Origin: a virus
Length of the DNA stretch: 13,937 bases
Strand: one strand, 5' to 3'
Virus genome (UHGV): UHGV-0176194
Numbering within the stretch: the first letter of the stretch is position 1; every line of letters begins with the position of its first letter. Shown here in pieces: positions 11,711 through 13,327 of the stretch. Both the position numbers and the translations under genes were made by a program. The notes below the pieces were generated by a model. That model did not search any database and had not been told where the DNA came from. It worked only from the letters and a program-made list of their open reading frames with translations.

Positions 11711-13327
11711 ATGTCTGTATTAATCTCAGGTGTGCTTATTAATGGTGCCGGCGTTCCGATGGCGGAATGCAAAATTTATTTAGATGCACTGGTTAATACC
11801 AGTGAAGTGGTCACTGAATCATTCGCGGTTATTGAAACCGATGCGGCGGGACAGTATGCCTTTGAAGCGCAAAAAGGCAAATACACCGTTCACATCAAGC
11901 AAAAGAACGGCCCTAAGTGCTGCGTGGGTGATATTTCGGTTTACGACGACTCAAAGCCCGGCACACTGAACGACTTCCTGACCGCTCTCGATGAAGGCGA
12001 CCTGAAACCGGATGTTGTTAAGCGGTTCGAAGAACTGGTGGCGCAGGCGCAGCAGAGCGCGGAAGCGGCAGCGGAAAGCGAACAGGGAGCAGGGAAACAC
12101 GCAGCTGATGCAGAGCAGACAAAAAAAGACTGCAAGACACTTGCGGATAACGTACAGCAGAACGCAGAAGCCGTAGCGGCCAGCAAACAGCGCGTTGAAC
12201 AGCTGGCCTCAGAAGTTAATCTGAACGCCGGGCAGGTGCAGCAGGGTGTGCAGAGCGTTACTGATGCGGTAAAAAAGGCGCAGCAGGCAGCAAAGAATTC
12301 TGCTGACAGTGCCACGGACTCAAAAAACAGTGCTGACAACGCCGCCCTGAGCGAACAGAACGCACAAAAACACGCGCAGAAAGCTGAACAACATGAGCAG
12401 CAGACTAAACAATATGCGCAGGATGCAGCGACCGCCGCAGAATCAGCAGAGAACGCCAAAGGCGAAATTGACGAAATTCTGGATGGCGGCTATCTCAAGA
12501 TAAAAAACAACTTTCAGGAAATTGTTGATGCTGGCCCGTCAGCACTGGCTCAGGCCCAATGGAATTTACAGATTTCCGGGGTGAAAAATAAACAGGTAAT
12601 TGCCACCCCTTATACATGGCCATCCAGAACTGAGTATGAACAAAGGGTGCATCTGCCACTCGCCGGGGCTTACGGATTTGGCTACACATTTGAAGACCAA
12701 AGCCAGGGGCGAATAAATTTTAATGAGGGCCATACGGCGTCGTGGTGGTCACAGTGGGCGAAACCTGGTCGTTATTACGTCAGCGCCAGTGATAAAGAAT
12801 ACCTCGCACCTGAAGGAGACAGGTGGGGGATTGTTGATTTGCTGTGGCTTAATGGCAGCGGACATAACGATGCTTCGAAGGTTCTGAAAATACTGGCTTT
12901 TTATGACAATGACGGATACTTGCACATCGGCAAACGTATTGCTCAGAGCAACTCGACAATAAGCTGGCGTAAACTCGCATCACTGCTGGATGTCCGACAG
13001 ATGTTGTATTCGTTTAACAGTAATTATAACAATGAGTGGCGCGACCCGGCGCAGCCAGGAAGTTTAATACTGGCGGCATACCAGGGAACCGCTGACGGCG
13101 ACACAAATATTAAAGTATCCCGTGGTCAGACTTACCCCGGCTCACGACTTGCACCTGTGGCGATAGAGTGCCCGTTCACCCCGTCTGGTACGTATGCGGC
13201 AACACCGCGTTTTTACATCACTGGCTGTAAAAGTCATTGCCTGCCAGGTACGTATATATCGATGTCCGGAGCACCCACAACATACAGCGACCAGGCTTTT
13301 GTTGCGCTGTTCATGAGGATTGCATGA
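11711..13327 (+). CDS. Side tail fibre protein with lambda Stf-type N-terminal domain, Ala/Gln-rich shaft and an unassigned C-terminal domain
   Basis: 538-aa ORF with GAGG 7 nt upstream. N-terminus (GDISVYDDSKPGTLNDFLTALDEGD) matches the lambda Stf N-terminal region as recalled. Residues about 110-260 are a low-complexity A/Q/S/E/K shaft. Confidence 0.8.
   Translation: MSVLISGVLINGAGVPMAECKIYLDALVNTSEVVTESFAVIETDAAGQYAFEAQKGKYTVHIKQKNGPKCCVGDISVYDDSKPGTLNDFLTALDEGDLKPDVVKRFEELVAQAQQSAEAAAESEQGAGKHAADAEQTKKDCKTLADNVQQNAEAVAASKQRVEQLASEVNLNAGQVQQGVQSVTDAVKKAQQAAKNSADSATDSKNSADNAALSEQNAQKHAQKAEQHEQQTKQYAQDAATAAESAENAKGEIDEILDGGYLKIKNNFQEIVDAGPSALAQAQWNLQISGVKNKQVIATPYTWPSRTEYEQRVHLPLAGAYGFGYTFEDQSQGRINFNEGHTASWWSQWAKPGRYYVSASDKEYLAPEGDRWGIVDLLWLNGSGHNDASKVLKILAFYDNDGYLHIGKRIAQSNSTISWRKLASLLDVRQMLYSFNSNYNNEWRDPAQPGSLILAAYQGTADGDTNIKVSRGQTYPGSRLAPVAIECPFTPSGTYAATPRFYITGCKSHCLPGTYISMSGAPTTYSDQAFVALFMRIA

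Follow-up and report, generated by a model that had tools for sequence, protein, structure and literature searches.

Fibre 2, a 538-amino-acid (aa) tail fibre of the virus genome UHGV-0176194, begins with the N-terminal domain of the lambda side tail fibre Stf (hereafter Stf-N) and is encoded in a Mu-type contractile-tail operon. The window, i.e. the whole stretch of DNA analyzed, is 13,937 nt long; based on Pfam, its long plus-strand open reading frames (ORFs) make up one late operon for a contractile tail of the Mu type. Our analysis confirms that the N-terminus of fibre 2 genuinely belongs to the lambda Stf N-terminal family, with a match far beyond chance, and shows that the gene is integral to the Mu-type tail module and not part of a neighboring lambdoid element. 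Based on homology and exclusion, we propose that fibre 2 may form a collar around the neck of a Mu-like virion, a reading that we regard as evenly balanced between right and wrong. The architecture itself is neither rare nor new as data, being present in the public phiP27 record (NC_003356). What we did not find discussed is the mounting site on contractile temperate coliphages, or the kinship between this anchor and the neck spike of the Vibrio myophage XM1.

Fibre 2 and its parts, all on the + strand, are as follows, with the basis of each assignment in parentheses.

11711..13327, + strand: fibre 2, 538 aa, consisting of the Stf-N anchor, a coiled coil and a C-terminal receptor-binding part (ORF, translation)
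11711..11992, + strand: anchor (collar) domain, residues 1–94, six-stranded β-sandwich plus short helix of the lambda Stf-N type (Pfam, PDB, AlphaFold2)
11936..11980, + strand: motif SVYDDSKPGTLNDFL, residues 76–90, end of strand 6 and helix (read from sequence)
11993..12490, + strand: linker and Ala/Gln/Glu-rich helical region, approximately residues 95–260, presumed trimeric coiled-coil shaft, boundaries approximate (composition)
12491..13324, + strand: C-terminal part, approximately residues 261–538, presumed receptor-binding domain (position)

A lambda-type anchor at the N-terminus of fibre 2

An earlier inspection of the letters alone (the sequence-only reading) had noticed, within the first ~100 residues of the 538-aa fibre, a motif known from lambda-type side tail fibres. 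The motif is there, as SVYDDSKPGTLNDFL at residues 76–90, and its lambda counterpart is TVYEDSQPGTLNDFL. The broader assignment, that of a lambda Stf-type N-terminus, was borne out. In a hidden Markov model (HMM) search, residues 1–134 aligned with positions 1–134 of 134 in Pfam family PF08400 ('Prophage tail fibre N-terminal'), with an expect value (E) of 1e-47 and a score of 162 bits versus a cut-off of 26.6 bits. BLASTP gave a gapless alignment with lambda orf-401, the N-terminal half of Stf, at 40% identity over 129 aa (E 1e-28), and a phmmer search of the PDB matched residues 1–93 to the Ur-lambda Stf collar domain (9E7M/9MGH; 40% identity, E 1.6e-17). The anchor begins at Met1, the extreme N-terminus of fibre 2.

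To collect homologues, we ran a first search, which yielded short partial proteins of the same clade, and a profile search, which brought in lambda-type sequences. Across a 48-sequence alignment (A2), G84, L86, N87, D88, F89 and L90 are invariant. The AlphaFold2 model of the anchor built on this alignment has a predicted local distance difference test (pLDDT) score of 73.7; a single-sequence run on residues 1–134 gave a pLDDT of 44 and was unusable. Six strands (residues 2–8, 21–26, 36–42, 48–54, 56–63 and 69–77) and a helix (86–89) are predicted. When the whole PDB was searched with Foldseek, only two structures matched the model with E < 1e-3, namely 9e7m_Ta (E 4e-9, template modelling (TM) scores 0.73/0.84, 43% identity) and 7kjk_A3, which is XM1 gp40 (E 3.6e-6, TM 0.70). 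The remaining matches were generic transthyretin or carboxypeptidase-regulatory folds, with E values of 4e-3 or worse.

The relationship to XM1 gp40 can also be detected by sequence comparison. A phmmer alignment of fibre 2 with gp40 covers residues 1–184 (E 1.5e-4), and hhalign with the N-domain alone returns a probability of 76.5% (E 2.2e-5). These data support a homology that is distant (23–27% identity) and consistent across methods. The sequence-only reading held that such N-termini normally dock onto siphovirus tails, and this premise proved too narrow: the homologous N-domain anchors gp40 at the neck of a myophage, XM1. A siphovirus-only view is also countered by BFVD, where the anchor fold heads fibres or spikes of sipho-, myo- and podophages. 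The Ur-lambda paper contains no mention of XM1 (PMC12617516), and we found no literature joining Ur-lambda Stf and XM1 gp40; a literature search on PF08400 turned up nothing related.

Beyond the anchor, the helical region of fibre 2 aligns with lambda Stf and with the helical region of XM1 gp40 (residues 98–172). Judging from the lambda and XM1 structures, fibre 2 would be a trimer (PMC12617516, PMC10457771). Considered over its full length, fibre 2 falls as a new member into the known family PHROG 2636 ('tail fiber protein'), with residues 1–537 aligning to positions 1–567 of the 568-position profile (E 1e-200). The C-terminal part matches only the C-terminal half of that profile (E 1.7e-87). 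No Pfam match was obtained for the C-terminal half of fibre 2, and no PDB tailspike match of the kind expected for an XM1-like β-helix tailspike was found for its C-terminus. Among related loci, the C-terminal part is swapped independently of the anchor; from its position, we infer that it is the receptor-binding domain.

A 172-aa ORF runs antisense to the Ala/Gln/Glu-rich region of fibre 2 (window positions 11941–12459, – strand), and the lambda record has an analogous antisense ORF (orf206b) inside stf. Rather than a gene, the 172-aa ORF is probably an incidental consequence of GCN-rich codons.

The fibre 2 gene as part of a Mu-type tail module

Upstream of the fibre genes, Pfam matches were obtained for sheath, DNA_circ_N (gp43-like), the GpP/gp44-like hub, Gp45, GP46, Baseplate_J and Mu Gp48, and BLASTP comparison with phage Mu gp39 and gp43–gp48 gave identities of 25–36%. 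The gp48 protein also matches the solved Mu baseplate (PDB 9KI1, E 2e-8). On both counts, Pfam and identity to the Mu proteins, the sequence-only reading was right to place the fibre gene after a Mu-type baseplate operon. Four genes follow gp48, encoding fibre 1, a Caudo_TAP assembly protein (Tfa), fibre 2 and a DUF4376 protein. The features surrounding fibre 2 are:

285..10162, + strand: Mu-type contractile tail and baseplate genes (sheath, tube, tape measure, gp43-like, gp44-like hub, gp45 spike, gp46, gp47, gp48; Pfam, BLASTP to Mu)
285–1706, + strand: sheath (Pfam)
8507–9586, + strand: Baseplate_J/gp47 (Pfam)
9590–10162, + strand: Mu gp48 (Pfam)
10162..11091, + strand: fibre 1, counterpart of Mu S (gp49), with a T4 gp37/lambda Stf-type tip (BLASTP, Pfam, PDB)
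11091..11666, + strand: Tfa, assembly protein for fibre 1 (PF02413 Caudo_TAP, E 4e-33)
11674..11697, + strand: terminator-like hairpin with T-run in the gap from Tfa to fibre 2, 7-bp stem with six G-C pairs (hairpin scan)
13324..13887, + strand: DUF4376 protein, 187 aa, whose ATG overlaps the fibre 2 stop (PF14301, E 6e-17)

Among public sequences, the nearest relative is the Mu-like prophage in E. coli UMNF18, with 97–100% aa identity for most tail proteins, the exceptions being the tape measure protein (92%) and gp45 (94%). The UMNF18 prophage also encodes homologues of the Mu gpT head protein, gp36 adaptor and gp37 terminator; a PDB sequence search with its gp37-like terminator gave no match.

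It is fibre 1, not fibre 2, that is shown by alignment to bear the predicted Mu S-type N-terminal baseplate anchor. Residues 4–112 of fibre 1 correspond to residues 12–142 of Mu S (32% identity, E 1e-11), the protein contains Phage_fiber_2 and Collar domains (Pfam), and its gene starts at the last base of gp48. Fibres of the Mu S/P2 H type are recognizable by an S-like N-terminus, a position directly after gp48 and a Caudo_TAP gene downstream. Fibre 1 has all three traits; fibre 2 has a different N-terminus and a DUF4376 gene downstream. Because of its Mu S-like N-terminus and its start at the last base of gp48, we take fibre 1 to be the wedge fibre. Its tip matches T4 gp37 (PDB 2XGF, E 3e-68) and lambda orf-314 (55% identity). 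Here, the tip and the anchor of lambda Stf are found in separate genes: the tip is placed on a Mu S-type anchor in fibre 1, and the anchor on an unrelated tip in fibre 2.

The fibre 2 gene lies on the same strand as the tail genes, 45 nt past the Tfa gene, and its stop codon overlaps the start of the DUF4376 gene, showing that the two are translationally coupled. A corresponding order is seen in phiP27, where genes L53 (gp48), L54 (fibre), L55 (Tfa), L56 and L57 are followed directly by attR. The phiP27 L56 protein is 64% identical to fibre 2 over the first 193 aa and 28% over the remainder. The order gp48, fibre 1, Tfa, Stf-N fibre and DUF4376 is also found in Mu-like, Rac-SA53-like and P2-like prophages. 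In RefSeq, such genes beside YmfQ/gp48 carry the automatic label 'prophage tail fiber N-terminal domain-containing protein'.

We then looked at how the anchor is distributed. A contig scan with the single anchor sequence found 6 loci, mostly remnants rich in insertion sequences (ISs) in E. coli and Shigella. Scanning IMG/VR with the anchor alignment produced 588 relatives, of which the best 80 were classified by their flanking genes. The loci compared are labelled L012, L027 and so on, L001 being phiP27, L003 E. coli UMNF18 and L004 Rac-SA53, and the anchor compared among them is the 94-aa domain (residues 1–94). Among these best 80 of 588, anchors 59–98% identical to that of fibre 2 are found in five tail gene sets, at the distal end of each: Mu-like (L012–L017), Rac-SA53-like, phiP27-like, P2-like and lambdoid (four loci). 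In the P2-like loci, the Stf-N cassette comes directly after gpD, far from the fibre genes. A DUF4376 gene follows these anchor-bearing fibres wherever there is sufficient downstream sequence.

The anchor sequences group by tail type. All copies of the Mu-type variant that we collected (8/8) adjoin Mu-like tail genes, and none is found elsewhere; the fibre 1 tip, Tfa, the C-terminal part of fibre 2 and the DUF4376 protein vary among the Mu-like loci that share it. Since the Mu-type variant is retained in 8/8 Mu-like loci while the tips vary, the anchor tracks virion type and not the receptor-binding cassette. Synonymous divergence (dS) among the Mu-type copies is 0.25–0.32, which means that they are not clonal, and the ratio of nonsynonymous to synonymous divergence (dN/dS) is 0.04–0.08. 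The Mu-type anchor is under strong purifying selection. It is present in ∼51 of 5,426 complete E. coli genomes.

No homologue of lambda J or lom was found in the window or in the Mu-like loci. Together with the phiP27 gene order, which runs up to attR, and the 8/8 association with Mu-like tail genes, this answers one of the two doubts that the sequence-only reading had attached to itself, namely that the gene might come from a separate downstream lambdoid element. It does not. The other, a lack of any significant match to the lambda Stf N-terminal family, is answered by the PF08400 result. The survey of other Mu-like prophages that had been suggested revealed the same architecture, and revealed it also in phiP27-, Rac-SA53- and P2-like sets.

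Two simpler descriptions of the anchor clade were considered and rejected. The clade defined by 59–98% identity is not myophage-specific, as four lambdoid loci have such an anchor on a second fibre that follows an Stf and Tfa of their own. Nor is the anchor strictly co-adapted with a single partner protein, as phiP27-like and Rac-SA53-like phages share identical anchors and have no other detectable similarity among their structural proteins. Some phiP27-like and Rac-SA53-like prophages have 94-aa anchors that are identical (loci L028, L040, L051 and L052). When phiP27 and Rac-SA53 were compared by BLASTP, similarity was confined to the C-terminal part of fibre 1, Tfa, fibre 2 and the DUF4376 protein; their head, neck, sheath, tube and baseplate proteins showed no BLASTP similarity.

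Several further features of these loci were recorded. The four lambdoid sets (L027, L036, L066 and L076; IMG/VR, ∼2900–12000) contain two tandem Stf-N fibres, in the order J, lom, lambda-type Stf, Tfa, a second fibre with a P2-type or phiP27-type anchor, and DUF4376. In UMNF18 (L003, 16446–26015), a P2-like tail set comes directly after the DUF4376 gene of the Mu-like prophage and comprises a fibre fragment, Tfa, FI, FII, U, X and D, then an Stf-N fibre and DUF4376 gene of its own, with host potB next. The layout in which gpD precedes an Stf-N fibre recurs in 14 IMG/VR loci (among the best 80 of 588). In L013 (12928–16120), genes for Rha/Ash, CII (CP76) and an S24 repressor lie on the opposite strand after the fibre 2 cassette; either the early region is of non-Mu type, making the prophage a mosaic, or another prophage lies alongside. 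Finally, the anchor of fibre 2 contains three cysteines, Cys20, Cys70 and Cys71 (window positions 11768–11770 and 11918–11923). There are three cysteines in Mu-type anchors, five in the phiP27/Rac type, two in the P2 type and two in the lambda Stf anchor (residues 1–94). Disulfide locking of an anchor ring is conceivable.

A possible collar at the neck

Solved structures provide a view of how domains of this family are mounted. In Ur-lambda, twelve Stf-N domains (four trimers) collar the junction of the last gpV tube ring and the gpM ring, making contact only through the β4–β5 loop with few hydrogen bonds, and the lambda Stf-N domain is located beside the tail tip complex (PMC12617516). In XM1, 18 gp40 N-domains (six trimers) wrap the neck at the gp4/gp5 junction; each trimer places two N-domains on gp4, the head-completion ring, and one on gp5, the tail terminator, and the N-domain is followed by a ∼100-residue coiled coil and a tailspike (PMC10457771). 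In the Mu virion, six S (gp49) fibres are plugged into the gp47/gp48 wedges, the neck consists of 12 gp36 and 6 gp37 subunits, and the baseplate has 12 copies of gp47 (PMC11915804). The sequence-only reading asked what structure the fibre attaches to, and this is a fair question: we found no published discussion of where the anchor is mounted on contractile temperate coliphages.

Our proposal is that the phage, a Mu-like temperate one with a contractile tail, would use fibre 2 as an auxiliary receptor-binding fibre in addition to fibre 1. The protein would trimerize via its Ala/Gln/Glu-rich coiled coil, and the N-domains, 12 of them as in lambda or 18 as in XM1, would join side by side and close a ring that encircles a hexameric or dodecameric ring of the tail axis. 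Closure may take place once the head is joined to the tail, at the part of the neck where the gp36-like adaptor meets the gp37-like terminator. The predicted result is a set of whisker-like neck fibres with a second receptor specificity, on a ring that would be held mainly by its own closure and geometry and would make few sequence-specific contacts. The neck appears to be the likeliest site because the sheath covers the tube and fibre 1 takes the six wedge sockets. We propose it, moreover, because the neck is the sole exposed stack of narrow axial rings and because XM1 mounts a homologous anchor there. That related anchors are found on lambdoid sets without a wedge baseplate (L027, L036, L066 and L076) points to a partner on the tail axis rather than a wedge protein, and closure driven by geometry would explain how the same anchor cassette comes to end five different tail gene sets.

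A number of observations weigh against a neck collar. The anchor is nearer to lambda Stf (67 bits), which lies near the tail tip, than to XM1 gp40 (25 bits), and gp40 itself falls under the PF08400 cut-off (E 0.061). Mu is without a stopper ring equivalent to gp4, the source of most of the XM1 interface (PMC10457771, PMC11915804), and no stopper homologue was identified for the neck of the Mu-like prophage. The fibre 2 gene sits among baseplate and fibre genes, not neck genes, and is preceded by a conserved terminator-like hairpin, so that it may not be expressed together with the tail operon. Lastly, identical anchors on phiP27-like and Rac-SA53-like virions are hard to square with any specific docking surface and can be explained only by assuming a geometry-driven clamp. 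These identical anchors on unrelated virions, and the P2-type and phiP27-type variants on second fibres of lambdoid sets, leave two readings. Either closure and the geometry of a waist on the tail axis do most of the holding, in keeping with how few contacts the lambda ring makes, or certain copies are passengers. A more general form of the proposal, which we offer tentatively and judge somewhat more apt to be wrong than right, is that Stf-N is a clamp for any tail type. It would be a self-closing ring that grips narrow axial junctions, on a cassette (anchor, coiled coil, tip and DUF4376) mobile between siphophage and myophage sets, and it would give Mu-like, phiP27-like, Rac-SA53-like and P2-like temperate coliphages hitherto unrecognized neck whiskers as a second organ for receptor binding.

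Other locations for fibre 2 can be envisaged. One is the exterior of the baseplate or the sheath–baseplate junction, where fibre 2 might be arranged as a ring or at separate sites and the baseplate would carry two fibre sets. The gene is next in line after the baseplate and fibre genes, lambda Stf, whose N-domain adjoins the tail tip complex, is a closer match to the anchor than gp40 is, and the 12 gp47 copies of a Mu baseplate would suit a 12-membered ring. However, in both solved cases the domain surrounds narrow axial rings and not wedge proteins, and the Mu baseplate has just six fibre sockets, occupied by the S-type N-terminus, which fibre 1 carries. The presence of related anchors in lambdoid sets that have no wedges, and of identical anchors alongside unrelated baseplate proteins, also makes a baseplate site unlikely. 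A branched fibre, with the N-domain of fibre 2 bound to the shaft or N-terminal part of fibre 1, strikes us as improbable. Both solved structures are rings around the tail axis, and the anchor family offers no precedent for binding to a fibre. Branched receptor-binding complexes are known from other phages, and it is true that the cassette directly follows a fibre–Tfa pair in most loci and that the N-terminal 112 aa of fibre 1 are 83% conserved among Mu-like loci with the Mu-type anchor. In P2-like loci, though, the cassette follows gpD, far from the fibre genes, and the identical anchors of phiP27-like and Rac-SA53-like prophages coexist with fibre 1 proteins that are similar only in their C-terminal part.

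It is also conceivable that fibre 2 is not on its own virion at all. In that case it would be a passenger cassette, spread by recombination via conserved fibre and Tfa sequences, and would be inert here or else serve a lambdoid phage residing in the same host. This idea is difficult to reconcile with the strong purifying selection that acts on the anchor in the Mu-like lineage (dN/dS 0.04–0.08 at a dS of ∼0.3), with the specificity of the Mu-type anchor for Mu-like tail genes while receptor-binding parts swap, with the intact reading frame and its coupled, presumed chaperone gene, and with the retention of the arrangement, inside attR, in the phiP27 genome record. What speaks for a passenger is the conserved terminator-like hairpin that separates the tail operon from fibre 2, the fact that E. 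coli matches break exactly at this hairpin, and the occurrence of the cassette in five tail lineages, lambdoid included, with identical copies across unrelated virions and many copies in decayed, IS-rich prophage remnants. On this evidence, we see only a slight chance that fibre 2 is a passenger.

If the neck-collar reading is true, Mu-like, P2-like and phiP27-like coliphages bear an undescribed second host-recognition organ at the neck, with consequences for predicting host range from prophage sequence. Lambda Stf chimeras are already in use for delivery vectors, and mounting of the anchor on unrelated virions would extend this engineering to contractile phages and tailocins. If, instead, fibre 2 sits elsewhere or stays unassembled, the finding reduces to routine mosaicism of fibre genes.

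Elements flanking the fibre 2 gene

The hairpin upstream of fibre 2 keeps its position in six Mu-like loci. In L012 and L013 (∼9955–9985), where the upstream Tfa cassette differs, the stem has another sequence and is still paired. Many E. coli matches to the anchor begin at ∼11692, just past the hairpin. This site is probably an attenuator as well as a recombination joint.

On the other side, the DUF4376 protein matches PHROG 1141 (E 4e-88) and is 88% identical to phiP27 L57 and to Rac-SA53 tail4. It is the constant partner of this class of fibre, presumably as either an assembly chaperone or a tip protein. The window ends 50 nt past its gene, within an inverted repeat (window positions 13902–13937; TTCTGGGC ... 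GCCCAGAA; loop of ∼21 nt). UMNF18 has an inverted repeat as well (L003, 16371–16410; AATTCTGGAC ... GTCCAGAATT), and the changes between the two genomes are paired. The repeat may be a terminator, a recombination site or the end of the prophage. No invertase gene was found between fibre 1 and the end of the window.

Comparison with known systems

The closest structural counterpart of fibre 2 is Ur-lambda Stf. The N-domains are homologous, with 40% identity, equal length, the same six-strand-plus-helix fold and the GTLNDFL helix motif, and a linker and an Ala-rich coiled coil come next in both proteins. As in Ur-lambda, the fibre would be accessory to a primary host-recognition device. Unlike lambda Stf, fibre 2 is encoded in a Mu-type contractile-tail module and not after J–lom, its C-terminal part is different, and its presumed chaperone gene is DUF4376 rather than Tfa. 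The β4–β5 turn reads AQKGK in fibre 2 and VEYGQ in lambda. Furthermore, the gpV/gpM docking junction, exposed in lambda, has no exposed equivalent under a sheath.

XM1 gp40, the second-best structural match to the anchor in the whole PDB, resembles fibre 2 in other respects. XM1 has a contractile tail with a simple, Mu-like baseplate, and gp40 likewise has a β-sandwich anchor of ∼100 aa, which in gp40 is followed by a trimeric helical region of ∼100 aa. As proposed for fibre 2, gp40 constitutes a second receptor-binding set beside those of the baseplate. Unlike fibre 2, gp40 ends in a Det7-like tailspike, and its gene is on the opposite strand and distant from the tail genes. Mu-type necks also lack the stopper ring (gp4) that is present in XM1.

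With respect to gene organization, the best parallels are phiP27 L56/L57 and Rac-SA53 tail3/tail4. There, too, gp48/I-like, fibre 1, Tfa, Stf-N fibre and DUF4376 genes stand at the far end of a contractile-tail set, the anchors are 70–71% identical to that of fibre 2, and the fibres belong to the same PHROG family. The virions are unlike that of the window: phiP27 combines an HK97-like head with a distant Mu-like tail, and the head, neck, sheath and baseplate of Rac-SA53 are of another type. In both phages the gap before the Stf-N fibre gene is 23 nt and contains no hairpin. The arrangement is also distinct from the S/U and S′/U′ system of Mu itself. By means of the invertible G segment, Mu flips one baseplate fibre between two tips, whereas the prophage described here encodes two complete fibres with different anchors.

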